Of a stretch of 64,000 bases of DNA, positions 30,305-56,779 are shown in pieces (the stretch's first letter is position 1; each line of letters begins with the position of its first letter). The translations under genes and the position numbers were made by a program. Origin of the DNA: Pseudomonadota bacterium (GTDB taxonomy: Bacteria > Myxococcota_A > UBA9160 > SZUA-336); NCBI GenBank assembly GCA_003247575.1, contig QJZC01000025.1:6498-70497 (forward strand), in the 5' to 3' direction. The notes beneath the pieces are model-generated. The model was given only the letters and a program-made list of their open reading frames with translations. It had not been told where the DNA came from and did not search any database.

Positions 30305-31144
30305 GCTGCACTCCTACTTCCATGGCTCCAGAGGAGAACTCCCCTCCCCTGGATGCGAGTCGGAAGGATGCGATAGCAGACGCCGTGCCGAGTCCCACCA
30401 GATACCAAAACACCAATGAAATCGGAGGGTTCGAAATCGAGCGGGCGCCCCTCACGCCCCCACCACGAGAGGCTCTCGGACATTCGCTGCACCGCGACAG
30501 TCACCCCACGTACAGCAGCTCGTGTGCAGCCTCCACGCCAGCGGATCTGGCGCGGGCCGCAAGACCGCGTGGGACACGCCCGGCGGGCGAGAACTCCACT
30601 CGGGCATCTTGGAGTGGGCAGCTCACATCAACTCCCATCGCTCAAGCGGTAGCTCCACCCCCAGAGGCTTCCTCGTCCAGTCTTGCGGGTAATCGTATGT
30701 GTCCCCAGCCGACCGCGCGAACGACCTGATCTCTCGCTGGGACAAGTCGAAGAAATATTTCGTCGCCGAGCTCCGGCGAACACGGGAGTGCGTCGACCGA
30801 GTCAAATGCATGCGCCGCGAACGGGACCTACACGCTCTGGCGGCTGCACGCGCGGCAAGCCGTCGAGCTCAGATGTTGGAGAGCCCAGCGACCGGATTCG
30901 AATGGATGCGGCGATGTGCATGCGCGAATGCCGGAGCTCGCGTCGCCCTCTCGGCAGCGTCCGTCAGGTATTCGGATGGAAGCCTGCGCTTGGGGAAGAT
31001 GTGATGCCTGCTCTCACGACTTCCACTGGAGAACGAAGTGACGTAGCATGGGCTCGCCCGGCGCCCTTCCTGAGCGGGTGAATGCGGAGTGGGGAGTCCG
31101 TGAGTGGGGACCGCACCGAAGTTCTGCAGACTCGAGAGGCCAAT

Positions 31145-32854
31145 ATGAGAGGATCTGGGGCCGGCATCGCCGGCTGCTACGGGAACCCCCTCGTGTCGGG
31201 TCGAAGGACGGCAGGTAGGACGGCGGTGAGTCGGCTCCTGCTGTGCCTTGGAATGATGTTCGCGGTGGCGTGCTCGAGCGATAGCGAATCGTCTCGAGAG
31301 GAGTCCCGCGCAGGCGAGCAAGGCGAAGGCCAGCTCGCGCGCGACTCTCGAGCGGAGGGCCAGGAGGCGGAGCTCGATCCGACGATCCCGTTCCTCCAGA
31401 CCCCCCTCATGTCGGACGAGGCGTTCGAGATCTTTCGTCTGATCGACGAGCGCAAGCTCAACGCCGCAGAAGCTCGTATACGCCAGAGGGAAGTCATGCT
31501 GGCCGAGGAACCTATGTTCATGGTGCTGCAGCGGTGGGCGGCGCTGCGCCAGTACGACTGGACCATGACCTCGACCTGGGAAACGAAGCTTCAGGAGTAC
31601 GACGAGCTCACACTGCTCGAGGCGGCAAAGAAGTCGCTCTCGGCTGCGGTCGAGCTCGACCCGAGTGTCGCGCCATTCGCCGCTGACGTGCTGGTGGAGA
31701 CTGCCTCCGAGTCCCTGGCGGCGGCCGCCAAGGAGAATCGAAGCCTCCTGCAGTTCGGCGAGTTGACGATCCTATCGGCGCCAGAGCGTGTTGCGAACGC
31801 ACGAGTGGCGGGTCTGCCGCGAGTGACGGATCAGATCGCAGGGCCGTTTCTGCTCTTCAGCGTAAAGGAGCCCCAGGCTGCACTGAACGATCTCTATGGT
31901 GGGGATCTCCAAGAGCTCGGCAGCATGCAAGCGTTCCAATTGCAGATGCAGTTCAACGCGCTCCAGCTCCAGCCGAACGTCGAACACTTCGGTCCGAGAA
32001 CAGGCCCCTGGTACGAAATGCTCTGGAAGGCACGCGAGCTCGACCCGGACGTTCATCGGCGTTGGGCCGAACCACTGGATGAGGTCGCGCTGCAGTTCAG
32101 GGAGCTGGGACTGTACTACTCGGCACTCGTGTCGAACGTGCAGAGCGAGCTCCTCAGAGGAACCGAATGGGAGGGGGCCGTCCAAGCGTCATGGGCCACG
32201 ATCCAGGCACACCTGACCGAGCCGCGTCGCGCAGACGACCCGTTGGCTCAAGAGCAGCGGGATCTTCTGGCATTGGTTGCCTTCGTGGCGGCCATGGAGG
32301 GCACGCGCGACAGCTACCTCGAGCTCTACAAAGAGGATCGAGGAGGTGTTCGCTCCTTCGTGCAGCACCTGGCGGATCGTGTGCCGCGCCCGTATCTGAT
32401 GACCGCCCTGCGATTCGAGGGCTTGAATCCAGCGCTGCTCCGACTCGACCTGCCCCGACGTGCACCGGCGAGCGTCGCCGCTCCTGCTCCTTCCCCCACC
32501 TCCACGACGGCCGAGATGCAGGAGTCGCGCGAAGCCGCATCGGGCACGGAAGCACCCTCGGGCGCGGGCGTGCAGGAGCCCCAGACGATCACGCGAGTGC
32601 GGCGACCTGAATCCAAGCAACCTGACTCCGGGCAGCCTGAATCCAAACAACCTGAGCCCAAGCAACCAGAGTCGAAGGAGGGCTGCCAAGGTTCGGCCGT
32701 CCTTTGTGCGCGGATCCAGGCAGCCGAGTCCATGGCTCAGAACCAGCCTTGCGAAGCCGTTCGCATTCTCGAGCCGCATCTAGCGCAGCGGGACCGCAAG
32801 GTCGTGGGCATGCACACGTTGGCCCGCGAGGCCTGTCGGGGAGGAACACGATGA
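31145..32854 (+). CDS. Lipoprotein of unknown function with C-terminal PESKQP-type repeats
   Basis: Lipobox 'LGMMFAVAC|SS'. ORF 31082..32854; the ATG at 31145 is the first Met. Confidence 0.55.
   Translation: MRGSGAGIAGCYGNPLVSGRRTAGRTAVSRLLLCLGMMFAVACSSDSESSREESRAGEQGEGQLARDSRAEGQEAELDPTIPFLQTPLMSDEAFEIFRLIDERKLNAAEARIRQREVMLAEEPMFMVLQRWAALRQYDWTMTSTWETKLQEYDELTLLEAAKKSLSAAVELDPSVAPFAADVLVETASESLAAAAKENRSLLQFGELTILSAPERVANARVAGLPRVTDQIAGPFLLFSVKEPQAALNDLYGGDLQELGSMQAFQLQMQFNALQLQPNVEHFGPRTGPWYEMLWKARELDPDVHRRWAEPLDEVALQFRELGLYYSALVSNVQSELLRGTEWEGAVQASWATIQAHLTEPRRADDPLAQEQRDLLALVAFVAAMEGTRDSYLELYKEDRGGVRSFVQHLADRVPRPYLMTALRFEGLNPALLRLDLPRRAPASVAAPAPSPTSTTAEMQESREAASGTEAPSGAGVQEPQTITRVRRPESKQPDSGQPESKQPEPKQPESKEGCQGSAVLCARIQAAESMAQNQPCEAVRILEPHLAQRDRKVVGMHTLAREACRGGTR
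32590..32680 (+). repeat. Tandem ~18-nt repeats (cctgaatccaagcaacct and variants) encoding 'ESKQPDSGQPESKQPEPKQPESK'
   Basis: Directly visible in the sequence. Confidence 0.6.
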
Positions 32855-33498
32855 AGACAGGGGTATCGACGACACCGGTCCAGCTCGGACTGGCTTTGCG
32901 AAGACCGCTGGGCCTGCTGGTGCTCGCATTCGCCTCGAGCCTCGTTGCGACACCGACACAGGCGCAGAGCAACTGGCAGCAGCAGCAAGAGCAGATGATG
33001 CGCCAGCAGCGCGAGCAACAGCGCCGCCAGCAGGAAGCTGCGGCCTACCAGCAGAGACAGCAGCAGGAGATGCAGCGTCGAGAAGAGATGCAGCGCCAGC
33101 AGGACCGGATGAACCAGGAGGCGATGCGGCGTCAGCGCGAGCTCCAGGAGCAGCAGCAACGCTGGAACCAGCAGGAGATGGAGCGTCAGCGCAAGACCCA
33201 AGAGCAGCTCCAGAGGCAGATGCGCGAGTCGTCGGAGCAGCAGCTGGAGCAACAACGTCGCTACTTCGAGGCTCAGCAGCAGGAGGAGTTCCGCCGTCAG
33301 GAAGAGCTCCGAGTAGGGCGCGCCCGCCGGAACGATGAGATGAGTCGACGCGAGGAACAGTCCATCCAGAGCGCACGAGTTCCGGACCCGCTCGATGAGC
33401 AGCGACGCTATGCCGAGCAGATGGAGTGGAAGCGCCGCCGCGAGGCCGAAGTTCTCAAACAGCGCGCGGCAAAGCGCGGCGGCCAGGGAGAACGCTGA
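32850..33498 (+). CDS. Secreted Gln/Arg/Glu-rich coiled-coil protein
   Basis: ATG at 32850 follows GGAGGA. Signal peptide 'MKTGVSTTPVQLGLALRRPLGLLVLAFASSLVATPTQAQS', then QQQEQ/RRQ low-complexity sequence. Confidence 0.5.
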
Positions 33499-33615: not shown

Positions 33616-33885
33616 CTACTCCAACAGAAGCCGGATCAGTTTCCGCTGACGCGCTCCGAAGGCAGTTGCATGCAGCGACTGAGCGCGCTCGCTGTGCGCG
33701 AGAGCCACCTGAATCTGACCCCGGCCGAGCTCTGCGGCCGCGCGCTCGCGTAGTCGCTGAGCGCGCACGATCAGCAGCATGAGACGCGTCAGATCGGCGC
33801 CGCAACGAGAGCATGTGCGTTCGCTGCGAAAGCGCGCACGACATACGGGGCAAGCGGGAGTGTGGCTCGAAGCCGAACTGGGCAC
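33616..33885 (-). CDS. Small zinc-ribbon protein (89 aa)
   Basis: 'CPVCRARF...CSRCGADL' C4 ribbon. Its start overlaps the Hsp70 stop (translational coupling). Confidence 0.4.
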   Translation of the reverse strand: MPSSASSHTPACPVCRARFRSERTCSRCGADLTRLMLLIVRAQRLRERAAAELGRGQIQVALAHSERAQSLHATAFGARQRKLIRLLLE

Positions 33886-33887
33886 CG

Positions 33888-35783
33888 TCAGCGTCCCTCG
33901 ACGAAGAAGAGAAGCTCGCTCAGCGCGCTGGTGGCGTCCTCGAGATCTGCGGAGTCACGTGCCTCGACCGCCTCGTAAATTCGCTCGTGCGCGGCGATCG
34001 CTTCTTCGCGGTCCTCATCGTGCATCTGCGTGAGCAGTCCTTGCGATCGCTCCACGAGTGCTTGCGCGCGCTCTACGGACTTCTGCCAAGCCGGAGCCAG
34101 GTCGGACTCGCCTTCTGTGGCGCGACCAGCTGGGTCGCCGACGGGATTCTGGACGGGGCTTGTACCCAAGGACTGAGAGGAAGCGAATTCCGAAACATCG
34201 AGCTCACTGCGATCGGGATCGAATGGGGCAACGAACTCCTCATCCTGGAACGCGCGTCCCTGGTGAAGCCCTGCGATGCGCTCCCGCGCGCGTGCGATCT
34301 CACCCTCGGAGCGATGGCGCAGGGCCTGCTCGATCGTGATCTGCTTGCTCTTGCCCGTGCGTTTCTCGATCGCCGAGACGCGCAAGATTCCGTCCAGATC
34401 CAGGCTCATGCGACACAGGATCTCGTTTGCCTCCTCGACCTCGGTGAGCCCCTCGATGCGAAACTGACCGATCGGAATGTTCTTGAGGGCGTCAGGGTCA
34501 TCGCCCTGATAGACCTCGATCTCGACGGTGTCCTGACAGGGGGAGCTCGTGTAGTAGCTCTCCGTGCGCGTGATGGGTAGCGGAACATTACGCTCGATGA
34601 TCGGACGGTAGCAATGCAGATACGGCTCTCCATAGAGCTCGCCCAAGTGGCTGGGACCGAAGGAGTAGGGTGACACGTCTACTAAAATTCGCTCCACATC
34701 CCGCCCTGCCAGTCGAGAAGCCAGAACACCCGCCCCGAGCGCAACACACAGATCCGGATGCACCTCGCGGCTCGGTTCGACCCCAGTTCGTTCCTGCAGA
34801 CGGGTCGCGATCGAGGGGATGCGTGTGGCGCCACCGACCAGCAGGATGCCATCCAGTTGGGTCGCCTGGATCCCGGAGTCCTGGATCGCTCGATGAACGC
34901 TATCGAGTGTACGTTCGAGAAACGGGTCGATCAGCGACTCGAACTCGTCACGCGAGAGCTCCCATGCGAGATGACATCCACTGCCCCCACGCTGGGCCAG
35001 GTTGTCCTCGCGGATCGCTGCGTAGGGCTCGTAGGAAAGCGTTCGCTTGGCCTGCTCTGCGGCCCACCAGAGACGCGACCAGGCGAGGTCGTGCCCCTTG
35101 CGCAGGTCGATCCCGTGCTGTTTCTCGAACTCTTGGGCCAGCCGCTCGGCGATCACGCGATCGAAGTCATCGCCGCCAAGCCGGTTGTCCCCATGGCTCG
35201 CCAGCACCTCAGTCACATCTCCCTCGATTCGCACGATCGAGACGTCGAAGGTACCACCTCCCAGGTCGTACACGAGTTCGGTACGGGGACCGCTCGCCGC
35301 GTGGCCATACGCCAGGCTCGCCGCGGTCGGTTCATTCAAGATGCGGACGACCTCGAGACCCGCGAGCTCTCCCGCCTCACGTGTCGCGAGCCGCTGCGTG
35401 TCGGAGAAATATGCGGGGACCGTGATCACTGCGCGCTCGGGGCGATGACCCAAGTGGGCAGCAGCCCAGTCGACGAGAGTTCGCAGCACGAGCGCCGAGG
35501 CTTCTTGAGGCGTGAGCGTTCGGTCACCGAGCTGCAGCTTGGCACTCGAACCCATCTCGCGCTTGAAGCTGCGCAAGGTCCGCTCCGGCGCGAACAGCGC
35601 CTGATTGCGAGCGGGCTCTCCAACCAACAGGGCTCCCTCGCTGTCCAGACCGACACAGGAGGGAAGGACCTTGCTTACGCCAGGTCCCAGCACCTCGACG
35701 CGGCCGTTCGCGTCTACCCACGCGGCAACCTCCGAGTTGGTAGTACCGAGATCGATGCCTAGAATGGTTTCACTGTTCGACAT
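33888..35783 (-). CDS. Hsp70-family chaperone (DnaK paralog)
   Basis: 'ILGIDLGTTNSEVA', 'DLGGGTFDVSIV', 'VLLVGGATRIP' motifs. Confidence 0.9.
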   Translation of the reverse strand: MSNSETILGIDLGTTNSEVAAWVDANGRVEVLGPGVSKVLPSCVGLDSEGALLVGEPARNQALFAPERTLRSFKREMGSSAKLQLGDRTLTPQEASALVLRTLVDWAAAHLGHRPERAVITVPAYFSDTQRLATREAGELAGLEVVRILNEPTAASLAYGHAASGPRTELVYDLGGGTFDVSIVRIEGDVTEVLASHGDNRLGGDDFDRVIAERLAQEFEKQHGIDLRKGHDLAWSRLWWAAEQAKRTLSYEPYAAIREDNLAQRGGSGCHLAWELSRDEFESLIDPFLERTLDSVHRAIQDSGIQATQLDGILLVGGATRIPSIATRLQERTGVEPSREVHPDLCVALGAGVLASRLAGRDVERILVDVSPYSFGPSHLGELYGEPYLHCYRPIIERNVPLPITRTESYYTSSPCQDTVEIEVYQGDDPDALKNIPIGQFRIEGLTEVEEANEILCRMSLDLDGILRVSAIEKRTGKSKQITIEQALRHRSEGEIARARERIAGLHQGRAFQDEEFVAPFDPDRSELDVSEFASSQSLGTSPVQNPVGDPAGRATEGESDLAPAWQKSVERAQALVERSQGLLTQMHDEDREEAIAAHERIYEAVEARDSADLEDATSALSELLFFVEGR

Positions 35784-35784
35784 T

Positions 35785-36624
35785 TCAGGAAGACTCCTCG
35801 GAGGCGGAGTGCGAGGGAGCGTGGGATCTACGAGACGCGACCTTCACCTGTGCAATACGTAGGATCTCGTCGCCCAGGAGGTACCCGGCGCGAAGCACCT
35901 CCAGCACGAGCCCCTCTTCCGCATCGCTCCTCTCGAGAGCGACTGCCTGCATGCTGTGGGGATCGAAGGGCTTGCCCACGCACTCGATGCGCGACACGCC
36001 GAGCTGCCCCAGCGCTGCGTCGATCTCTGCGAGTGCGAGTGTGTAGCCTTCGGCCAGTGCCCAGGCGGCGCGCTTCAGGGAGTCGAGCTTTTCCGTGCTA
36101 CGCCGTCGCCAGTAGTGGTTGCGCGGCGCCTCGTTCGCCTGCGCAATCAACGTTCGTCCCGCGGAGTCGCCGCGCTCCAGACGTTCGCGCAGATTGAAGA
36201 AGAGCTCGAGCCGATCGCGCTGTACATCCACGCGCGCGCGGGCAACCTGAGTGGCGATTACGCGTTCGAAGTTCGCTGCCGTATCTCCGAGCAACGAGGC
36301 ATCGCGCGCGAGCGGCTCGATCTGATCAGCTAGCTGCTTGAAACTGCGTCCCTGCAGCTTGACCTCCTGGCTGAGTGCCGTCACCGCAGCCCACACCGAG
36401 TAGAGGTCAGACTTGGAGTCGAGGTCGGAGTGCGAGCGCGGCTCGGAGTGCTGCGCACGGTCCTCCGCATCGGCGGGTTGATCCTCCAGGAGTTCTGTGG
36501 CCAGGCCCAGAGGCAGCTCGGGGCCCGCGAGTGCTTCGTCGAGGCGGGCTTCGAAGGCTCGGAGCAGTCGCGTTCGAATGGCCTCGCGTTCGGAATTCCT
36601 CTCTGAACTCGTAGGTGAACTCAT
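35785..36624 (-). CDS. grpE: GrpE-like nucleotide exchange factor
   Basis: C-terminal 'GKPFDPHSMQAV...GLVLEVLRAGYLLGDEILRIAQVKV'. The ATG at 36624 overlaps the upstream TGA stop (ATGA). Confidence 0.65.
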   Translation of the reverse strand: MSSPTSSERNSEREAIRTRLLRAFEARLDEALAGPELPLGLATELLEDQPADAEDRAQHSEPRSHSDLDSKSDLYSVWAAVTALSQEVKLQGRSFKQLADQIEPLARDASLLGDTAANFERVIATQVARARVDVQRDRLELFFNLRERLERGDSAGRTLIAQANEAPRNHYWRRRSTEKLDSLKRAAWALAEGYTLALAEIDAALGQLGVSRIECVGKPFDPHSMQAVALERSDAEEGLVLEVLRAGYLLGDEILRIAQVKVASRRSHAPSHSASEESS

Positions 36625-36932
36625 CGGCCGCGCAGAACCTCGAGCCAGGGAACAGGGCCCGTGTGGATGCGGCGAGGCGGGAGTTCGTCCAGCAGGTCTA
36701 CGAAGCAACCGCAGCCAGGCTCTTCGATCCAGCGCCTCGCGCGCCGCTCCGGACTGCGCACGCGGTCGTAGGCGTCGCGCACGCGCTCGAACTGTTCTGG
36801 CGCTCGGTCCGGTGGAAACTCGCGCACTTTCCGCAGGTAGGCGGCGCGGAGCTCGTCCTCGGTGACGCTCGCCGCGACTTCGAGCACGACGTAGGGATCG
36901 AGCGGACGCAGTGTGTCGGTCACTGAATTCAT
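36621..36932 (-). CDS. J-domain-like protein with variant HPD motif (FPPD)
   Basis: 'DPYVVLEVAASVTEDELRAAYLRKVREFPPDRAPEQFERVRDAYDRV' follows the J-domain pattern but has Pro in place of His in HPD. A CGC motif follows. Confidence 0.55.
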   Translation of the reverse strand: MNSVTDTLRPLDPYVVLEVAASVTEDELRAAYLRKVREFPPDRAPEQFERVRDAYDRVRSPERRARRWIEEPGCGCFVDLLDELPPRRIHTGPVPWLEVLRGR

Positions 36933-36942
36933 CCTCCGCAAA

Positions 36943-39750
36943 TCAAGTGGGGGCCAGAGAGGAGAGGCACACCGCGACTTCCGCTCGGATCTTTGCATGT
37001 AGCTCCGGATTTCGCTCGGCTACAACGCTCATCCACGGGATGTGCCTGGGAGTGGCGCCATACTTCATCGCCGCTTCCAGCAGCAGGCGCATCAGTCGCG
37101 GGGGGAGCCCTTGCAACTTCGCAACTGGCGCCCCTTCGATGCTTGCCAGAAACGAAACCGACAGATCGAGATCCTCGACCGGGTCTTCGTCCTCGAGGTC
37201 TAAGTGGCCTCGACCGCCGCGTTGGAGCTCGCACCTTCGGCAGGGGCAGCCTGAGCCGTGTGGATGCGCCCCCCGCCGGTTCTGGGGTGGACGCTGATGC
37301 TCGAGCTCAGCATCGAAAACCGCCTCTGGGTGTGCGCTGGGTTGCGGGCCTTCGCTCCAGATGTCGCTCAGATCCCGTCGTACATCGACCGCGTCGTCGA
37401 GAAGGCGCGCATTGCGATCGCGCTGCGCGAGCGCGATGACCGCGTCCACGCAGCACAGCGCTCGTTCGTCGTCGAAGCCCTCCAGCGAGCGTCCCCGGAG
37501 TAGAAGAAACCGCGCGCCATAGGCGTCGCGTCGAGCCAGGCCCGCATGGCTGGCTAGATAGGCCAGCTGCTGTTCCCCTCCCTGGAGTGCGCACTCGGCC
37601 AGAGCGCAGAGAGCTCCGCTCTCGAGAGTCTCGGCGATCGTTCCGCGAAGTGCGCGACACAGCGACCGCACCTCGGTTTCCATGAACTCGACATCCAACT
37701 CGAGCGCACGGCAGAGTGAACAGACGCGAGCTGCCCCGTCGAGCAGGGAAGCGTCGGTCCCCTGAGCGCTCTTCTTCGAACTGCGCGTTCGGCGGTGTCC
37801 GGGTTCCGCCCCTTCTTTGCCTCGTCGCAGATCCAACCGCGCGACGGCCCGCAGCAACAATTCTGCAGCGCGGGCATCGCCCACTTCTTGTGACAGCGCA
37901 TCTTGGTGCAGTCGAAACCCAGCCGGATCCTGCGCGAGCGCTGCATGCGCACAGCGAAGAGCCGAGAGCGCCAGATGGCTGTCCATCGACTCCTTCGACC
38001 CCAGCTCTGCGATCGTCTGCTCCAAAGCCGCAATGTCACCAGCCAGGAGCTTCGGTTTGTTGCCCGCAAGGTGGCGCTGTGCGGTCTTGATCTGGAGACG
38101 TCGCCGCGCGTGAAGCACGCTCGAATCGAGGGGGTTCCGTTGCGCCGCTTGCTCCAGAAAGCCCAGGGCCTTTCGCAGCGCACCGCGAGACTCCGCCGAC
38201 TGCATTCGGATCAGCAGCGGGTGGGGATCGTTGGGATGGGTTTCGGTCCAGGCCTCCGCTGCGCGTTCCATCTGTTTGTCATCGCCTCGGCTACGCGCCG
38301 ACTCGATCCAGGCGCGAAATCCATCCGGGCTCGAATCCCATTCGCACGCGCGCGCATGCAACCACAGCGGATCCCGCGCTCGGTGTTCGGAGGTCGAGCT
38401 GGTCGATGCCTTGGCGCCCCGGGACCTGCGGCCTCGCGCGCTGCGTCGTCCACCCGGTTGGCTCCTCTGCGTCGGGTCCAGATCCTTGGCCTCGCGAAAC
38501 AACTCCTCGATCTCGTCCGCAGCGTACCCTTCGAGCAGCGAGGCCGTGTGCCGATAGATGGCGGCGGCTTCGAGACCTTCGCTCGCCAGCTGCCCTTCCG
38601 CCACGGCTGCCTTCAGGAAGGAGATCCACACCGGCGCGGCGAATGCATGCGGCAATCCCGGCGCTCCTTCGATCGACTTCGCGAGTCGTCGCAGGTACCC
38701 GGCATCGCGCTTCGGGGCCCTGCCGATCATGTGCTCGATCCACTCAGGATCGAACATGTGCACGATCGCGTAGATCTCGATCCACTGGAGGAGTCGCTCC
38801 AGGAGTTCTGGGGCCTCCGACCGGACCTGTCGCACCGCTGCTTCGATGTTGTGAGGAACCTCGAATGGATCTTCCGCGGCGAAAGCTGCATCCAGGCGTC
38901 CAAGCGCGCTCCGGAGCTTGTCCGGGCGCCCGAGCACTCGATTGTACAGCCGGGTCGGGGCCGCTGGGGCGACCGCAGCCGTCATCGCGCGCAGCTCGGG
39001 GACCAAGCGCGCTGGGGCCGAGTCCGTAGGGATCGCTGCGAGGCTGCGCTCGCATTCCTCGTCTTCGCAGCGATAGAACGCGGCAAGTGCGCGCACCAGC
39101 AGCTTCCAGGGAGCGAGTGGGCTACGCCGCGACACTTCTGGCAGAGCGACTTCGACATCTGTGACGCTGCGCGTGGTCACACGGGCCAATGCATCCGTGA
39201 TCGCTCCCGCGGCTCTCCGAAGCGGATGATTCTCCGGTAGAGAGGCGGCGCTCGCCAGGGCGCTGGGATCACATAGGTGCTTCCGGATAGCGTCCTCGAT
39301 CTCCTCACGTGTGGCGGGCGCAAGATCGGGATCGGCCAGCGGAGCGACTGCGTCGTCCACCTCGCGCCCCTTTACAGCGAAGCGCAGGCGAAGGGAGCGA
39401 ACCGGATCTCGTGCCTCGGCATGGTTCTGTTCGAGGAGCTCGAGCAGTGCGATGGCCTCCCGGTCGAGCCCCTTGGCGGCCAGCGCCTCGGCACGCGCCA
39501 GGTAGCTGCGGATCAGGAGCGTACGTGAAGCCTCGCTCGGCGCACTCCGGTGGAGTCCCTTGGCAATTGCGAGAGCGCGGGTGGAGATTCCCCGCGCCAG
39601 CAGATCCTCGACTTGAGCTTCGAGCTCGTGAGCACCCTGCTGCGGCGGTCCAGCAATCGTGGATGTCGCTTCTCCGCTTGCATCTGGCGGCGCAAGGGCA
39701 CTGGAGCGCGTTCCGCGGCGGTCGCCGCGAATCGTAGCTGCCCTTTTGCG
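36943..39750 (-). CDS. Large (~900-1000 aa) all-helical protein of unknown function, first gene of the J/GrpE/Hsp70 operon
   Basis: The maximal ORF reaches 40176, but its first ~150 codons are Arg-rich and contain no Met, so the start is uncertain. The C-terminus has a 'GCPCRRC' motif. Confidence 0.5.
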   Translation of the reverse strand, partial: RKRAATIRGDRRGTRSSALAPPDASGEATSTIAGPPQQGAHELEAQVEDLLARGISTRALAIAKGLHRSAPSEASRTLLIRSYLARAEALAAKGLDREAIALLELLEQNHAEARDPVRSLRLRFAVKGREVDDAVAPLADPDLAPATREEIEDAIRKHLCDPSALASAASLPENHPLRRAAGAITDALARVTTRSVTDVEVALPEVSRRSPLAPWKLLVRALAAFYRCEDEECERSLAAIPTDSAPARLVPELRAMTAAVAPAAPTRLYNRVLGRPDKLRSALGRLDAAFAAEDPFEVPHNIEAAVRQVRSEAPELLERLLQWIEIYAIVHMFDPEWIEHMIGRAPKRDAGYLRRLAKSIEGAPGLPHAFAAPVWISFLKAAVAEGQLASEGLEAAAIYRHTASLLEGYAADEIEELFREAKDLDPTQRSQPGGRRSARGRRSRGAKASTSSTSEHRARDPLWLHARACEWDSSPDGFRAWIESARSRGDDKQMERAAEAWTETHPNDPHPLLIRMQSAESRGALRKALGFLEQAAQRNPLDSSVLHARRRLQIKTAQRHLAGNKPKLLAGDIAALEQTIAELGSKESMDSHLALSALRCAHAALAQDPAGFRLHQDALSQEVGDARAAELLLRAVARLDLRRGKEGAEPGHRRTRSSKKSAQGTDASLLDGAARVCSLCRALELDVEFMETEVRSLCRALRGTIAETLESGALCALAECALQGGEQQLAYLASHAGLARRDAYGARFLLLRGRSLEGFDDERALCCVDAVIALAQRDRNARLLDDAVDVRRDLSDIWSEGPQPSAHPEAVFDAELEHQRPPQNRRGAHPHGSGCPCRRCELQRGGRGHLDLEDEDPVEDLDLSVSFLASIEGAPVAKLQGLPPRLMRLLLEAAMKYGATPRHIPWMSVVAERNPELHAKIRAEVAVCLSSLAPT

Positions 39751-39938
39751 ATTTCTCCGTCTTCTCGGCACGCGCTCCCCACCAGCAGGAGAGAGTTCGA
39801 AACGGGTGCTCCTAGACGCTGGAAGTGTGCTGCGCCGGAGCAGCCCCCATCCGGCGGTGGCCCGGTGGATTCCCCTGCAACGCCCGCAGTCTCGCACAGT
39901 CGCGTGGAGGGATTCCAGCGCGTCGCTGGGGAAGCTCC

Positions 39939-52764: not shown

Positions 52765-55700
52765 TCAAGCCTCGAAGCGCACCGTCCAGGCCGCGATCCA
52801 GCCTGGTGGGCAGCCTTGGTCAGCCAACGCGGCCTCCGCTTCGGCCCGCAGGGCCGCGCCGCGCTCGCCGCCGATCAGATCCCCCAAGCGCGCATTGCAG
52901 TAGTGGCGTTGCTGGGCGGAGGGACTCTCGCGGGCGGCCGCGGCCGCGGACTCGAACAGGGTGCGGGCTGGGTCGAGCTGTCCAGCAGCTGCGCGGAGCT
53001 GTCCGTAGAGGAATTCCGAGCAGCCAGCGAGCACTGGGGGTGCGAGGGGCTCGCCGAGCCACGTCGTCGGTCGGGCGAGCAGGGCTGCATACTGCTCGAC
53101 CTTGGCGAGCAAGCTGGCCCGATCGCCGACGCCTCGCGACACCGCGCAGAGCAGGAGCGCGGCCAGACCGGAGACGACGAGTAGATTGCTTGTCGACTTT
53201 CCACGATCGAAGCGGCCTCCGACCTCGTCCACCAGACGCAGAGCCTCTTCCAGGTTGCCTTCGGCCATCTCGAGCAACGCGAGACTGAGCAGCCCGAACC
53301 ACCGGTTGTTGTTCGAGTGCGCAGAGACGCCGATCGCGTCCGCGAGCTCGAGCCCACGGCGAATCTCGGCTCGTGCGCGATTGGCGTCGAGCGGGCCATT
53401 GAGAAGATATCCCCCTAGACAGCGCAACGTCACGCTCCCGAAGAAGTCACCCGCCGCATCTGCGAGGCGAATGCCGCGTAGACAGTGCTCACCTCCCGCC
53501 CCCATTCCGACATGATGATTGTGCGCGAGGATGACGTGGGTTCGACACATGCTGAGCTCTCTCTGCATGCCGCGGTTCTCGGGCAGGCTCAAAAGCTCCT
53601 CGGCGCGTTGCAAGTCCGCGAGCCCGAGGTCGCCGCTGCCGGAAAAGAATGCGACGTGACCGCGACAAAAGGCGATCCAGGCGCGCATCATCGGGGTATC
53701 CTGCCGCTCGAGCAAAGCGACCACGTCTGCAAGCTGACCGCCCGCGCCGACCGGGTCGAAGCTCGCCTCGAAGCAGGCCAGCAGAAGCGCGCGGCCTCGG
53801 GCGACGTGCCCTGGCTCCCCTGCTTCGAGCGCTTCGCGCACGTAGGCGATCACCAGGCCCGCGTAGCCATCGTGCACCCACGTGGTGCCCAGCGCCGCGG
53901 CCCAGAGCGTCTCGAGCCGCGCGAGTCGGGCCGGGTCGATGGCGTTCGCGTTCGTGGGTTCGAACCGGAAGCCGCGCTCGAGCAAGGCAGTCCGCGCGGG
54001 AAATCGGGCCTTCGGGTCGGTCAGGGCGTCGTAGTCGACTCCGGCATTCGCGAGCGCACGGCGCATGGCGTCGGTGCCCGCCGCGAGGTCGCCGTTGATG
54101 AAGAACTGCTCTCCGGCGCGCCGCTGCAACTCCTGCAGCCGCGTGGGATCGAGCTCGGACGCCTGCAGCAACGTGCGCGCCGCATCGCCGCGGCGCCCGC
54201 TCCCAACGCGTGCCTCGGCGAGCTCGACCAGAAGCTCCGCGCGCTCGACGTCCGAGAGCCCCGGATGCGTACACGCGGTCTCGAACAGGCTCACCGCGCG
54301 ATCGAAGGCGAACGCTTGCACCGCCGCTCTCGCCGCTCGGCGGGCGTACTCGGCACCGCGTTCGCGCTCGCCCGCACCGAGGCTGTGCTCGGCGAGCGCA
54401 TCCAGATCGAGGGGCTCCATGGATTCGAGCGCGACGGCGTAGCGGCGATGCCAGCTCGCGCGCTCCGGCAAAGGCATCGCATCGCGCACGGTCTCGCGGA
54501 TGCGATCGTGGTAGGGCCCGAGCCGACGTTCTTGAAACGCGCCGTCCCGCTTGCCCGCCACTTCGCGCACGAGGCGTTCGGCAAGCAGCGAACGCAGCTC
54601 CGCAGACACGTCGGCCTGCTGCGCAACGCGCGCGAGCAGCTCCGGCGTCACCGGTCGCGGCGCAATGCAGAGCGCCTGCACCATGGCGCGAGCGCCTTCC
54701 GATAGCTTTGCGAGCCGTGACAGGATTGCACTCCGCAGGTCGCCCGGGGCTTGCCCCGAGTGCACGGCGCGGCTGAGCTCGCCGAGCAGAAACGGGCTGC
54801 CGCCAGCTTCGCGCGCGATCTGCTCGACCCGCTCCACCTCGTCGGGGGGGAGAAGCTGCTGCGCCAGCCGACGCGACTCGGCGGGGGTGAGCGCACTGAG
54901 CTCGATCGTGCGCACGTCCAGCTCGCGCTTCACTTCGTCCTCCGCCAGCATCTGCCGGAGCGACGAAAGCCCCTCGGCGTCGGGCTCGTCGTCGCGGTAC
55001 GTGGCGACGAGCAAGAGCAGCGGCGGATCCGGCGGCAGCAGCAGATGTTTGAGCAGCCGTGCGCTGTCGCGGTCGCTCCACTGCAGATCGTCGATGTACA
55101 GGATGAGCGGTCGCTCCTCGGCGAGCTTGGCGAGCAATTCCTTGAGCGCGTCGAACGCGCGCAGCCGCAGCTCGGCGTCGTTGTTCGGCAGGCCCCGGCG
55201 CTGCGGCGCATGACTGATGGCCTCGACCCGACCGAGCACCGGGAAGACTCGCACCAGCGCGTTGACGTGCCGGGGCACCAGACGTGCCGCCACCACCTCG
55301 GGCAAGCGCGCGAGATAGCGGGTGAGCGCGTCTACGATGCCATCGAAGCCCTTGAACGGCACCGACTCGCGCTCATAGCAACGGCAGCCGAGCACGACCG
55401 CATCCCCGCGTTGCTTCACAGAGGCCAGGAAGTGCTCGACGAACGTGGTCTTGCCGATCCCCGACGGCCCGCCGGCCAAGCAGAGCACGGGCTTACCCGC
55501 ATTGGTGTCGGCCAGCGCCAGCTCCAGCGCCGCCAGTTCGCGACCACGGCCTACGAACGTCCCTTTGGGAAACGAGTCCGCCAGCTCCGCGTCGTCGCCC
55601 GACGGTCCGGACTTGGATGCACGCGTGGAACCAGGGACGCGGGCTGCACCGGGCGACGCATGCGACACCGCGCTGCCGAGCATGGCATGGATGTCGGCGT

Positions 55701-56700
55701 GAGTCGGACGCTCCGAAGGATTCCGAGCGAGCAGCCGATCGCACAGCTCAGCCAGGTCCGCCGGCGCCGAAGGATTGAGCGAGCGCACGGCGGGCGCCGC
55801 GCCCGTCTGCTTGGCCATCAGCATCCGCAGCGACTCGCCTTCGAACGGCAGCCGCCGCGTGAGCGCCTCGAACAACATCACTCCGACCGCGTACCAGTCA
55901 CTCGCCGGTGTCGCCCACTCCGCGCGCGCCTGCTCGGGCGCCATGTAGGCGGGCGTGCCGGCTACCCCGCGCTCGATCGTCTGCGTCACACCTGCGCTCA
56001 AGACATCGCTCGCCAGCCCGAAGTCCAAGATCGCAACCCTTGGCCCGTCCGCACTCTCGGCCACCAGCACGTTGCTGGGCTTCAGATCGCGATGCAGCTT
56101 GCCCGCATCGTGGATCGCCTGCACACCGGCCGCGAGCTGAGCGAGCACCGTGCGCAGTCGAGCTTGGTCGACGGGCGCCTTACCGCCTAAGGTGGTCCGC
56201 GGATCGCCCTCGATGGACCGCAGATCGTCGCTGGCCCGCAGATAGCGATCGAAACGCTCGCCCGCGACCAGCTCCATGCTGAAGAACCAAAGCTCGCCAT
56301 CGGCGAACAACTCGTGGAGCGGCACGAGGTAGGGGTGCACCACATCCGCGATCGATCGGAACTCGCGCTTCATGCGGTAGATGCCCGCAGCGTCTACTCG
56401 CGAGAGTGTCTTGATCGCGACGATCCGGTCCTGGCGCAGGTCGCGCGCCTCGAATACGACCCCCATTCCACCTTCGCCCAGGCGCCGCAGGATCGCGAAG
56501 CGCCCATCGCAGAGCTTGGAGCCCGGCGCCAGCATGCGTCCGGGCGACGTCACCTTTGCCGCGGCGTGCAACAGCCGATCGAACGCACTGTCCTGGGTCG
56601 AATCGACGGAGGCATCCCGCCCCAAGGTCTCGGACCTTCGGGATTCCTCCTCGGGTCGGCTTTCCTCGTTGGATGGGTGGCTCGGATGCTTCGACGTCAT
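52765..56700 (-). CDS. Ser/Thr protein kinase fused to AAA+/STAND NTPase and C-terminal helical (TPR-like) domain
   Basis: 'LGEGGMGVVFEA', 'VAIK', 'HRDLKPSNVL', 'DFG', 'APE'; Walker A 'GGPSGIGKTT' and Walker B 'LILYIDDLQWSD'. Confidence 0.85.
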   Translation of the reverse strand: MTSKHPSHPSNEESRPEEESRRSETLGRDASVDSTQDSAFDRLLHAAAKVTSPGRMLAPGSKLCDGRFAILRRLGEGGMGVVFEARDLRQDRIVAIKTLSRVDAAGIYRMKREFRSIADVVHPYLVPLHELFADGELWFFSMELVAGERFDRYLRASDDLRSIEGDPRTTLGGKAPVDQARLRTVLAQLAAGVQAIHDAGKLHRDLKPSNVLVAESADGPRVAILDFGLASDVLSAGVTQTIERGVAGTPAYMAPEQARAEWATPASDWYAVGVMLFEALTRRLPFEGESLRMLMAKQTGAAPAVRSLNPSAPADLAELCDRLLARNPSERPTHADIHAMLGSAVSHASPGAARVPGSTRASKSGPSGDDAELADSFPKGTFVGRGRELAALELALADTNAGKPVLCLAGGPSGIGKTTFVEHFLASVKQRGDAVVLGCRCYERESVPFKGFDGIVDALTRYLARLPEVVAARLVPRHVNALVRVFPVLGRVEAISHAPQRRGLPNNDAELRLRAFDALKELLAKLAEERPLILYIDDLQWSDRDSARLLKHLLLPPDPPLLLLVATYRDDEPDAEGLSSLRQMLAEDEVKRELDVRTIELSALTPAESRRLAQQLLPPDEVERVEQIAREAGGSPFLLGELSRAVHSGQAPGDLRSAILSRLAKLSEGARAMVQALCIAPRPVTPELLARVAQQADVSAELRSLLAERLVREVAGKRDGAFQERRLGPYHDRIRETVRDAMPLPERASWHRRYAVALESMEPLDLDALAEHSLGAGERERGAEYARRAARAAVQAFAFDRAVSLFETACTHPGLSDVERAELLVELAEARVGSGRRGDAARTLLQASELDPTRLQELQRRAGEQFFINGDLAAGTDAMRRALANAGVDYDALTDPKARFPARTALLERGFRFEPTNANAIDPARLARLETLWAAALGTTWVHDGYAGLVIAYVREALEAGEPGHVARGRALLLACFEASFDPVGAGGQLADVVALLERQDTPMMRAWIAFCRGHVAFFSGSGDLGLADLQRAEELLSLPENRGMQRELSMCRTHVILAHNHHVGMGAGGEHCLRGIRLADAAGDFFGSVTLRCLGGYLLNGPLDANRARAEIRRGLELADAIGVSAHSNNNRWFGLLSLALLEMAEGNLEEALRLVDEVGGRFDRGKSTSNLLVVSGLAALLLCAVSRGVGDRASLLAKVEQYAALLARPTTWLGEPLAPPVLAGCSEFLYGQLRAAAGQLDPARTLFESAAAAARESPSAQQRHYCNARLGDLIGGERGAALRAEAEAALADQGCPPGWIAAWTVRFEA

Positions 56701-56779
56701 CGTGGTCTCGTATACCACACCCACGGCTCGCGGATTTCCTGACCGTAGGTTCGTTCAAAGGGTCGCGGCACCGAGAGAC

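Follow-up and report, generated by a model that had tools for sequence, protein, structure and literature searches.

The locus considered here raises a question of purpose. Within the 64,000-nucleotide stretch of DNA that was analysed (the window), five neighbouring genes encode an Hsp70, a GrpE, a J-domain protein with proline in place of the histidine of the HPD signature, a large helical protein and a small zinc-ribbon protein. Is this the housekeeping chaperone operon of a lineage that has drifted, or a machine devoted to another task? We think it rather likely that the cassette is a specialised chaperone machine, complete in itself and built around its own Hsp70, and that its five genes are inherited and transferred together as a single operon. 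The papers searched contained no account of it.

Layout of the cassette

The five open reading frames, all intact and, as the original prediction had stated, co-directional, lie on the minus strand at positions 33616-39771 of the window. Gene 1 (36943-39771) codes for a protein that is all-helical in its AF2 model, a TPR-like solenoid and a scaffold or candidate client. It had been taken to start at 39750 and to yield a protein of about 1000 residues; the gene begins at 39771, and its product measures 942 residues. Its start is a GTG codon with GGGGAG upstream, and the protein is identical to the public gene call (P0001). Gene 2 (36621-36932), recognized by the Pfam DnaJ profile and by its AF2 model, specifies a small J-domain protein of 103 residues if read from ATG; the public call (P0171) gives 100 residues, matching an in-frame GTG at 36923, the spacing of which from GGAGG is better than that of the ATG. 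Gene 3 (35785-36624), the start of which is confirmed by tblastn, encodes a GrpE-type nucleotide exchange factor of 279 residues (Pfam GrpE), and gene 4 (33888-35783) a divergent, full-length Hsp70 of 631 residues (Pfam HSP70). Gene 5 (33616-33885), again with a GTG start, encodes an 89-residue protein in which a C4 zinc ribbon at the N-terminus precedes a helical hairpin.

The genes had been described as coupled through ATGA overlaps. This holds for the junction between the stop of the J gene and the start of the GrpE gene, the single true overlap of this kind in the cassette; the remaining junctions are gaps of 10 nt (19 nt with the GTG start of the J gene), 1 nt and 2 nt. The motifs that had been read from the letters, namely FPPD, a C-terminal CxC..C and the C4 ribbon, were all located in the translations.

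Conservation and distribution

All five genes stand in the same order, on one strand, in 57 of the 59 related loci with enough downstream sequence, and an arrangement that recurs in this way in independent loci is far beyond chance. The carriers belong to at least six phyla (Acidobacteriota, Desulfobacterota, Planctomycetota, Myxococcota, Hydrogenedentota and Rokubacteria), and among the cultured ones are Solibacter usitatus Ellin6076 and Edaphobacter aggregans (L064). Relatives of the large gene, linked to the cassette, are present in 119 of some 185,000 species genomes. The pairwise-identity matrices of the five proteins correlate, with r = 0.74-0.95. There is no conserved flanking gene: no flanking family is seen at more than 7 of some 80 loci, no Pfam family recurs in more than 3 among 140 cassette neighbours, and these neighbours are ordinary metabolic and transport genes. 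Conservation of the large gene with the Hsp70 had been put forward as a test of the idea of a specialised machine, and it is borne out, since all five genes travel together between unrelated flanks.

Patchy distribution and unrelated flanks suggest horizontal transfer, and it is here that we have to consider an anti-phage or conflict system, where the Hsp70 cycle would serve as a sensor or threshold switch. Hsp70 homologues have precedent in this role, the analogues being the Hsp70-containing GTPase systems (Kaur et al., 2020) and the Hsp70-like CnuD of the CoCoNuTs. An autonomous cassette scattered over distant phyla would fit such a role, as would a locus (L001) that sits among toxin-antitoxin and AbiEi genes, and the degraded and rearranged copies seen at two others (L030, L082). 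We nevertheless deem this explanation improbable. None of the five proteins matches a PADLOC model (E ≤ 0.01) or carries an effector domain (nuclease, protease, TIR or pore), and the solenoid lacks catalytic-looking invariant residues. No defence family recurs among the neighbours, and the cassette was not found in plasmid, phage and IMG/VR collections. Furthermore, unlike CnuD, the cassette Hsp70 has fully intact ATPase motifs and is accompanied by a GrpE and a J protein.

A divergent Hsp70

Gene 4 matches Pfam HSP70 with 413 bits and remains below the cut-offs of the NCBIfam DnaK equivalogs (NF001413, 438 bits against 648; TIGR02350, 431 against 822.55) and of that for HscA (TIGR01991, 353 against 708.55); NCBI labels its relatives only as 'Hsp70 family protein'. 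In a comparison that used E. coli references exclusively, it is approximately 36% identical to each of DnaK, HscA and HscC (DnaK 36.7%, HscC 36.6%), and a profile of the cassette Hsp70s scores these references at 439 bits for DnaK, 384 for HscC and 338 for HscA. Between phyla, the cassette Hsp70s share a mean identity of 66% with one another.

These figures bear on the plainest explanation, the housekeeping dnaK operon of a divergent lineage. It would account for the fact that the Hsp70, GrpE and J-domain genes share one operon, and no other Hsp70 is visible in the window; a canonical dnaK was found neither in its 64 kb nor in the flanks of the related loci. The gene dnaK has been reported in 98.9% of bacterial genomes (PMC11019930). 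We consider this explanation barely conceivable, as the proteins fall below the DnaK and DnaJ equivalog cut-offs, no class-A DnaJ is present, the occurrence of the cassette is sporadic, its Hsp70s are much closer to each other across phyla than to DnaK, and one metagenome-assembled genome holds two cassettes (L029, L049). No CIRCE element was found anywhere in the window with up to 3 mismatches. The original prediction of a specialised machine, as opposed to a housekeeping one, is supported by the conserved loci, the Hsp70 scores and the sporadic distribution.

Divergence has spared the catalytic core. D8, K70, R71, P143, R151, R167, N170, E171, T173, D194, T199, D201, D393 and D481 do not vary among the 66 cassette Hsp70s examined and, to judge from this intact site and these interdomain residues, the protein is a catalytically and allosterically competent ATPase. 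The GrpE-contact loop has retained its length. Other features mark the family: a cysteine occupies the position of DnaK V474 in all 66 proteins, and the SBD-beta region HLGELYGEPYLHCYRP (34602-34649, minus strand) carries, at the L1,2 position, 8 residues that DnaK does not have, in alignments with Geobacillus and E. coli Hsp70s. The C-terminus ELLFFVEGR (33891-33917, minus strand) is near-invariant, with no disordered tail beyond; each of the 66 proteins terminates in (E)LLFF[VIM]EG[RKQ] or a close variant.

A J-domain without its histidine

The product of gene 2 scores 31.5 bits with Pfam DnaJ (PF00226; cut-off 27.8), and every PDB match of its AF2 model is a J-domain, including that of DnaK-bound DnaJ (5nro_B, rmsd 1.4 Å). 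With TIGR02349 (DnaJ) it reaches 24.7 for a cut-off of 377, and it is devoid of the class-A architecture (G/F region, zinc finger, C-terminal domain), consisting of a J-domain and a short tail in 100-103 residues. By profile and by model, the small protein is a true J fold, with a signature that is invariably P-P-D/E instead of H-P-D. In our copy, the variant FPPD (residues 39-42; 36807-36818, minus strand) occupies the loop between helices II and III. An alignment of 78 cassette J proteins has H33 replaced by proline in every member, so that the HPD tripeptide occurs in 0 of 78; P34 is always retained, position 35 is aspartate in 64 and glutamate in 14, and K48 has become glutamate in 77. The docking residues of helices II and III and the basic residues of helix II persist beside this motif: R22, Y25, F47 and A53 are retained, and K51 is always arginine. 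The J fold is followed by a conserved tail of about 40 residues, DPxxPLxSLLD...RxFxGPxPWLxVLK.

The meaning of the substitution depends on what the histidine does. In the DnaJ/DnaK complex H33 contacts the backbone of L391, P34 contacts P419, D35 contacts R167 and Q378, and K48 contacts D477 (PMC8215388). On the Hsp70 side, every cassette protein has P419 and R167; leucine or methionine always replaces Q378, and position 477 is never acidic, being serine or arginine. Against the explanation that we prefer, covariation at the contacts between the two proteins was indistinguishable from the phylogenetic background, the pair J27/H206 ranking 57th of 280 Hsp70 columns.

Replacing the histidine abolished ATPase stimulation in all systems tested (PMC8215388; PMC13254874), and the cassette J protein may therefore not stimulate at all. 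The machine would then be the same specialised one, its J protein being a pseudo-JDP (type IV), an anchor or brake that does not trigger hydrolysis: it would keep Hsp70 bound to the solenoid or shut out real J proteins, much as Pam16 restrains Pam18, while stimulation would come from the client or from a housekeeping DnaJ. This is in line with the loss of stimulation caused by H to Q or D to N in all those systems, HPE being the sole tolerated replacement reported (PMC13254874; PMC8215388), and with the absence from the cassette of any gene for a J protein with HPD. Yet Pam16-type domains have lost the entire motif (DKE or DKS) and bind another J-domain, whereas here P34 and the acidic residue 35 are invariant, the docking residues R22, Y25, F47 and R51 are kept, and the contact residues of the Hsp70 are altered in a family-specific way. 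A designed J-domain analogue without HPD was, besides, able to stimulate Hsc70. An inactive J protein seems to us unlikely, and the J/Hsp70 interface looks, from its residues, as if it had been retuned, not abandoned.

GrpE and the zinc-ribbon protein

Gene 3 matches Pfam GrpE with 69 bits and is below all the NCBIfam GrpE equivalog cut-offs, the best score being 51.7 against 184. The cassette GrpE has a conserved N-terminal extension, and its gene is present in 58 of 59 loci. The zinc-ribbon gene follows the Hsp70 gene with the same regularity (58/59 loci). Its C4 ribbon, CPVCRARFR...CSRCGADL, lies at 33802-33852; at E ≤ 0.01 Pfam returns weak matches to DZR_2 and Zn_ribbon_6, both under cut-off, and none to zf-DNL, the profile of the Hep1/Zim17 escort. 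This ribbon is most simply read as a structural zinc site.

The solenoid protein

No family for the solenoid protein was found in Pfam, NCBIfam, PADLOC or PHROGs, and Pfam returned no TPR match. Its AF2 model (pLDDT 84) is all alpha, and Foldseek retrieves generic TPR scaffolds only (Ctr9, APC subunits, Ski3, Naa15), at E ~1e-4 and with TM-scores of just 0.11-0.19. The family is large, with 2198 representative clusters at 50% identity. The chain has a polybasic N-terminus and helices at its C-terminus, as well as an RRSPLAPWK element that is invariant in the family, a CxCxxC knuckle and an acidic stretch.

The N-terminal tail MPRRRRNRKRAATIRGDRRGTR (39706-39771, minus strand) brings a net charge of +9 over the first 30 residues. 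In most relatives the polybasic tail is C-terminal, or the chain finishes in Q-x-S-L-F; altogether a polybasic end and/or a Q-x-x-L-F end is found in 73 of 80 members, the latter in 28 of the 80, mostly as QGSLF, and the copy of the window is without it. The C-terminal consensus for binding to the beta clamp is of the Q-L-x-L-F type (PMC4549789). The most conserved element, LPEVSRRSPLAPWKLLVRALA (residues 210-230; 39082-39144, minus strand), is an ordered loop followed by the N-terminus of a helix: in the model, at a pLDDT of ~97, residues 201-219 are coil and 220-233 helix. Its R216, P218, L219, A220, W222 and L225 do not vary among 45 sequences gathered with a word search, and the invariant residues of the protein contain no plausible catalytic set. 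A structured loop and helix cap is no obviously exposed Hsp70-binding peptide, and this counts against the explanation that we prefer.

The knuckle, CPCRRC (residues 842-847; 37231-37248, minus strand), belongs to a linker near the C-terminus where pLDDT is <50; it is facultative, because just 53 of the 80 family members have it. Cysteines in three of the proteins (the CxCxxC of the solenoid, the C4 of the small protein and the residue at the V474 position of the Hsp70) could evoke metal or cofactor handling after the fashion of HscA/HscB-IscU, with a metal centre held by the cysteine motifs and an Hsp70-driven transfer, HscA/HscB being a precedent for an Hsp70 with one client. We find this very unlikely, as the knuckle is missing in 27 of 80 solenoids, no Fe-S or metal-trafficking genes recur nearby, and the C4 ribbon has its simpler structural reading.

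Proposed mechanism

We return to our preferred reading, that of a specialised and probably orthogonal Hsp70 system, which would work on or with the solenoid protein. The J protein would dock at the canonical interface made by the nucleotide-binding domain, the linker and SBD-beta. Its aspartate or glutamate would engage the invariant equivalent of Arg167, the canonical switch (for the Asp-Arg mechanism of J-domains see PMC7289447) that frees the linker and triggers hydrolysis. The lost histidine contact, together with the changes of the Hsp70 (Q378 to L/M; D477 to S/R, opposite K48 to E in the J protein), would make of the two a private, co-evolved pair, insulated from the housekeeping DnaK and DnaJ, with GrpE resetting the cycle. 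The non-enzymatic, TPR-like solenoid would be the dedicated partner, either a platform that brings clients or the object that is remodelled.

Operon linkage is the sole basis on which we assign roles to the solenoid, the zinc-ribbon protein and the tail of the J protein, and the following steps are speculative. The conserved tail of the J protein might recruit Hsp70 to the solenoid. The latter might be tethered to a polyanionic structure through its polybasic terminus or, in Terriglobales, through the clamp-binding-like Q-x-S-L-F end; DNA with its sliding clamp, RNA or the ribosome, and an acidic membrane are the candidate targets. The zinc-ribbon protein might be an obligatory small accessory, which, by analogy only, could escort the Hsp70 or cap the solenoid. 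Taken to its end, this would place the cassette beside DnaK, HscA and HscC as a fourth class of bacterial Hsp70 machine, in which a His-less PP[DE] J-domain and a matched private Hsp70 form an orthogonal circuit that remodels a large solenoid assembly on DNA or the sliding clamp, the ribosome or the membrane. We advance this full version tentatively, as a possibility.

Significance

A 2026 review of J-domains holds HPE to be the sole tolerated change of HPD, and states that whether other deviations are an accident or were selected 'remains enigmatic' (PMC13254874). A change from histidine to proline in 78 of 78 proteins, over at least six phyla, in genes that share an operon with a dedicated Hsp70 and GrpE, and with matching changes at the Hsp70 contacts, makes this a clear instance, found in nature, of a deviant motif under selection. 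Were the pair active and orthogonal, the rule for how J-domains fire Hsp70s would be revised, and engineers would gain an insulated chaperone module; were the J protein inactive, we would have a case of a regulated pseudo-J protein in bacteria. Either outcome would define a widespread, unannotated solenoid family, hosted by abundant soil and sediment bacteria, as Hsp70 partners. The system is tractable, with five small-to-medium soluble proteins and, in S. usitatus and E. aggregans, two cultured hosts.

Comparison with known systems

HscC of E. coli, with DjlB and DjlC, is likewise a specialised, non-housekeeping Hsp70. Its three hallmark indels (as listed in PMC8215388) are shared by the cassette Hsp70: loss of the segment corresponding to DnaK 76-101, the L1,2 insertion and a deletion of ~9-10 residues in lid helix B. 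The J-domains of DjlB and DjlC have a variant HPE and a shortened loop after the motif, a loop that the cassette J protein shares, and a TPR-like Sel1 protein, YbeT, is encoded at the hscC locus too. HscC, however, has no GrpE signature and presumably functions independently of GrpE, while the cassette encodes a GrpE of its own and its Hsp70 retains the loop; in DjlB and DjlC, which are tail-anchored, the histidine is still there, while the cassette J protein is soluble and carries PP[DE]. Membership in the HscC family is not established, because the cassette profile ranks DnaK above HscC.

With HscA/HscB-IscU the cassette shares a logic, that of a dedicated Hsp70 and a small single-purpose J protein with one native client in the operon. 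Yet HscB has the regular HPD, and HscA works without a GrpE partner, on a small Fe-S scaffold encoded in the isc operon; no isc genes were found near the cassette loci. The mitochondrial import motor and its escort (Ssc1, Mge1, Pam18/Pam16, Tim44 and Hep1/Zim17) comprise an Hsp70, a GrpE-type factor, an HPD-less J-like protein, a scaffold and a small zinc-ribbon protein, Hep1/Zim17, that keeps mitochondrial Hsp70 functional. This parts list resembles that of the cassette; the relation in sequence is limited to the Hsp70, GrpE and J folds, and the cassette has neither a membrane component nor a zf-DNL match.

The GAP1-N2 GTPase systems and the CoCoNuT protein CnuD also associate, in patchy operons, an Hsp70 with helical repeats or with GrpE and DnaJ/TPR fusions. 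They are centred on GTPases or on McrBC with nucleases, partners that the cassette does not have, and CnuD, whose ATPase motifs are degenerate, is accompanied by neither a GrpE nor a J protein. In Myxococcus xanthus, a bacterium of complex lifestyle, SglK-GrpS (MxDnaK2) is a second specialised Hsp70 that shares a transcript with a GrpE of its own; its operon is bicistronic, with no neighbouring J protein (PMC11019930) and no solenoid or zinc-ribbon gene reported.

There remain the type IV or pseudo-J proteins, Pam16 and DnaJB13, in which, as in the cassette, a J fold bears a non-conservative change of HPD. In Pam16 nothing of the motif is left, and its partner is a true J protein; DnaJB13 has HPL, whereas the cassette J protein loses the histidine only; and here the replacement is invariant across phyla, in a gene that is linked within its operon to an Hsp70 and a GrpE of its own.

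Gene organization of the cassette

Five intact, co-directional genes occupy the minus strand between positions 33616 and 39771. The first (36943-39771), which starts with a GTG preceded by GGGGAG, codes for a solenoid protein of 942 aa, identical to public gene call P0001. It is followed by the genes for a J-domain protein (36621-36932; 103 aa from an ATG, or 100 aa from a GTG at 36923, the latter length matching public gene call P0171), for GrpE (35785-36624; 279 aa), for an Hsp70 (33888-35783; 631 aa) and for a protein of 89 aa with a GTG start (33616-33885). The stop of the J gene and the start of grpE share an ATGA, and the remaining junctions are gaps of 10 (or 19), 1 and 2 nt, so that the genes are tightly packed; the original prediction of coupled ATGA overlaps holds for the J/GrpE junction but not for the other three. 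The FPPD, CPCRRC and CPVC...CSRC motifs that it had read in the J, solenoid and small proteins are all in place.

Searches against Pfam confirmed the DnaJ, GrpE and HSP70 domains and gave only sub-threshold zinc-ribbon matches for the small protein, while the large protein had no match in any of Pfam, NCBIfam, PADLOC and PHROGs. A CIRCE element is absent from the window, no Rfam family was matched, and promoter and terminator matches did not rise above the shuffled expectation. Convergent with the cassette, an ORF at 32704-33498 (plus strand) displays a signal-peptide-like N-terminus, then an extremely Q/E/R-rich low-complexity region; a 590-aa ORF (31082-32854, plus strand) ends in a run of PESKQP-type repeats, and neither has a Pfam match. 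Elsewhere in the window, an ORF of 1319 aa (52765-56724, minus strand) has a third-position GC of 0.82, unusually high in comparison with its neighbours.

Conservation and distribution

A word-based search retrieved 48 relatives of the large protein, at 24-55% identity, and in the first three contigs inspected the large gene was followed by the J, GrpE, Hsp70 and small genes, in that order, between unrelated flanks. When one genome per species was scanned, relatives were present in 119 genomes, the best 80 of which belong to Acidobacteriota (Terriglobia, Bryobacterales, Thermoanaerobaculia), Desulfobacterota, Planctomycetota, Myxococcota/Polyangia, Hydrogenedentota and Rokubacteria, with the cultured Edaphobacter aggregans DSM 19364 among them. 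A relative of the J protein is assigned by UniRef to Solibacter usitatus Ellin6076 and lies on a contig with the complete cassette. At a larger scale, when 1.84 billion representative proteins were searched by profile, the large protein had 2198 clusters at E <= 1e-3 and 675 at the stricter E <= 1e-30; almost all of these proteins are 800-1000 aa long.

Among the 59 loci with at least 4.6 kb beyond the large gene, the five genes are complete in 58 and keep both order and strand in 57, which bears out the expectation that the large gene would be conserved with the Hsp70. The pairwise-identity matrices of the five proteins correlate (r = 0.74-0.95), and the sequence comparisons, taken together, establish the co-inheritance of the cassette genes. 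The two exceptions to the common order are a degraded locus (L030:8605-11863), which lacks the J and GrpE genes and has a truncated Hsp70, and a rearranged one (L082:7558-13930), in which the solenoid gene has those for the Hsp70 and the zinc-ribbon protein upstream of it. One metagenome-assembled genome, Acidobacteria SKS5.bin94, contains two complete or near-complete cassettes on separate contigs (L029 and L049), which could result from duplication or from strain mixing.

When flanking ORFs were clustered over about 80 loci, no gene family recurred in more than seven of them, and no Pfam family appeared more than three times among 140 immediate neighbours; the genomic context therefore gives no hint to the function of the cassette. 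A patchy distribution, combined with this autonomy, would fit a conflict (anti-phage) system, but no effector, no match to a defence model and no defence-island context accompany the genes. Identification with a catalogued defence system was likewise rejected, as PADLOC gave no match and PHROGs returned merely generic Hsp70, GrpE and J families. The cassette was also absent from the plasmid, phage and IMG/VR collections searched.

A distinct Hsp70

The Hsp70 of the cassette scored 438 and 431 bits against the two NCBIfam DnaK equivalogs, the cut-offs of which are 648 and 822, and NCBI labels its relatives merely 'Hsp70 family protein'. Its identity to DnaK, HscA and HscC is 36-37% in each case, against a mean of 66% (minimum 54%) among cassette Hsp70s compared across phyla. 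These values uphold the proposal of a specialized, non-housekeeping machine, and by sequence the protein is a distinct type of Hsp70. The view that we are dealing with a housekeeping dnaK operon is contradicted on every criterion that was testable; the search for a second set covered the window and some 1.2 Mb of locus flanks, where no canonical dnaK, dnaJ or grpE was found.

The best solved relative is the DnaK of Geobacillus (2v7y, 358 bits). In an alignment of 66 cassette Hsp70s with E. coli DnaK, HscA and HscC, every residue checked for catalysis and interdomain allostery (D8, K70, R71, P143, R151, R167, N170, E171, T173, D194, T199, D201, D393 and D481) is invariant, a pattern that establishes ATPase competence as far as sequence can predict it. 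Three hallmark indels of HscC, as listed in a review (Mayer, 2021; PMC8215388), are shared: the DnaK 76-101 segment is absent, loop L1,2 of the substrate-binding beta-domain carries an insertion (8 residues in the cassette protein), and about 10 residues are deleted from lid helix B. Unlike HscC and HscA, however, the cassette Hsp70 retains the loop that contacts GrpE and is encoded with a GrpE of its own, and a profile of the family scores DnaK (439 bits) above HscC (384) and HscA (338). The protein has no disordered tail and ends in a near-invariant ELLFFVEG[RKQ]. Within the substrate-binding beta-domain, the column of DnaK V474 holds Cys in 66/66 cassette Hsp70s instead of the V or I of DnaK, HscA and HscC, and that of F476 an invariant Met in place of their F.

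The J protein and its interface with Hsp70

An AF2 model of the J protein (pLDDT 75 overall, above 87 at residues 11-50) contains the J-domain helices, and its PDB matches are all J-domains, among them DnaJ in its complex with DnaK (1.4 A rmsd). As first noticed in the window, Pro replaces the His of the HPD motif, and it does so in all 78 aligned sequences; the second residue is always Pro, the third Asp (64) or Glu (14), and the residue before PP[DE] is Phe, His or Tyr. A large survey of J-domain proteins excluded any sequence lacking the complete HPD and, among variants, discusses HPE alone (PMC10410713), and according to a 2026 review, whether deviations from HPD are accidental or selected 'remains enigmatic' (PMC13254874). 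Because replacement of the His has inactivated every J-domain tested, the main rival to a functional co-chaperone is that this domain would act as a non-stimulating anchor or brake.

The published contacts between the two partners are H33 with the L391 backbone, P34 with P419, D35 with R167 and Q378, and K48 with D477 (PMC8215388). On the Hsp70 side of the cassette, R167 and P419 are invariant, the Q378 position (Gln in DnaK, HscA and HscC) is always Leu or Met, that of D477 holds Ser, Arg, Asn or His but no acidic residue, and that of T417 is Pro or Ala. On the J side, the docking residues R22, Y25, F47, R51, A53 and Y54 are retained, K48 has become Glu in 77 of the 78 sequences, and the loop behind the motif is shorter by six residues, a feature shared with DjlC. 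The core of the J-domain mechanism is the capture of R167 by the motif Asp, away from D393 and D481 (PMC7289447); with Asp or Glu, R167, D393 and D481 all present, this core is fully available in the cassette. We read the interface as retuned and co-evolved, a reading that covariation does not support, as it was indistinguishable from phylogenetic background: J27 x H206 had the top mutual information among the pairs chosen, but it was rejected as such background because it ranked only 57th of 280 Hsp70 columns. Behind the domain lies a conserved tail of some 40 residues, for which the model has low confidence.

The solenoid and zinc-ribbon proteins

That the first gene would code for an all-helical protein agrees with its AF2 model (pLDDT 84), an all-alpha solenoid over residues 46-830. 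Four segments (1-43, 447-457, 651-665 and 834-885) are disordered, and residues 891-935 form C-terminal helices. Foldseek retrieved only generic TPR scaffolds (Ctr9, IFT-A, APC subunits, Ski3, Naa15), with low TM-scores. The invariant residues cluster in LPEVSRRSPLAPWK, modelled as an ordered loop and helix cap; since they include no histidine, aspartate, serine or cysteine, the protein is considered non-enzymatic. The invariant RRSPLAPWK stretch was considered as a recognition peptide for Hsp70, similar to the LPPVK of IscU, but its well-ordered position in the model leaves this idea as a weak speculation.

A strongly acidic stretch precedes the terminal helices in nearly all members, and the CxCxxC motif is present in 53/80. 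A polybasic terminus and/or a C-terminal Q-x-x-L-F is found in 73/80; the latter (28/80, mostly QGSLF) is consistent with the Q-L-x-L-F consensus of sliding-clamp binding at protein C-termini (PMC4549789). The Q-x-S-L-F end is that of the Terriglobales clade, where it stands at the extreme C-terminus behind a K/P-rich linker (L001, L026, L064 and about 25 other loci), and most others end in a polybasic tail such as GRRKKGRRR. The solenoid of the window has a polybasic N-terminus, with neither a basic C-terminal tail nor a Q-x-S-L-F end.

The small protein consists of a CPVCxARFRG...CSRCGADL ribbon, then a helical hairpin. With hhalign, exactly this hairpin aligned with the first hairpin of the solenoid, but at a probability of 18%, so that homology is not established. 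In three loci (L008, L009 and L012, at about 15.2-16.0 kb in locus coordinates) the gene has an extra C-terminal extension of about 80 residues with a hydrophobic, transmembrane-like end, which hints at membrane anchoring in some lineages.

Comparison with known Hsp70 systems

Since the cassette contains no enzyme other than the Hsp70, it must act through ATP-driven protein binding or remodelling. Most simply, it is accounted for as a specialized Hsp70 system comparable to HscA/HscB or HscC/DjlBC, where a private J co-chaperone and exchange factor would serve the Hsp70 and the solenoid would be its dedicated platform or client. The identities of the folds are established; our account of how the J protein docks, of an orthogonal system and of what the solenoid, J tail, terminal tethers and zinc ribbon do is inferred or, in part, speculative.

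A literature search for the five-gene combination found no description of it. The SglK-GrpS operon of M. xanthus is bicistronic, with no adjacent J protein (PMC11019930), and identity with it was rejected on this described architecture. Conflict systems that contain an Hsp70 have partners that differ from those of the cassette, and in CoCoNuTs the Hsp70 homologue has degenerate ATPase motifs. The neighbourhood of hscC in E. coli K-12 (L086, 677415-683393) comprises djlB, ybeT (Sel1/TPR-like), ybeU, djlC and hscC, and a specialized Hsp70 beside J proteins with variant motifs and a TPR-like protein is a theme that it has in common with the cassette. We therefore class the cassette as a dedicated Hsp70 system, a known kind, with an unusual and testable J-domain.
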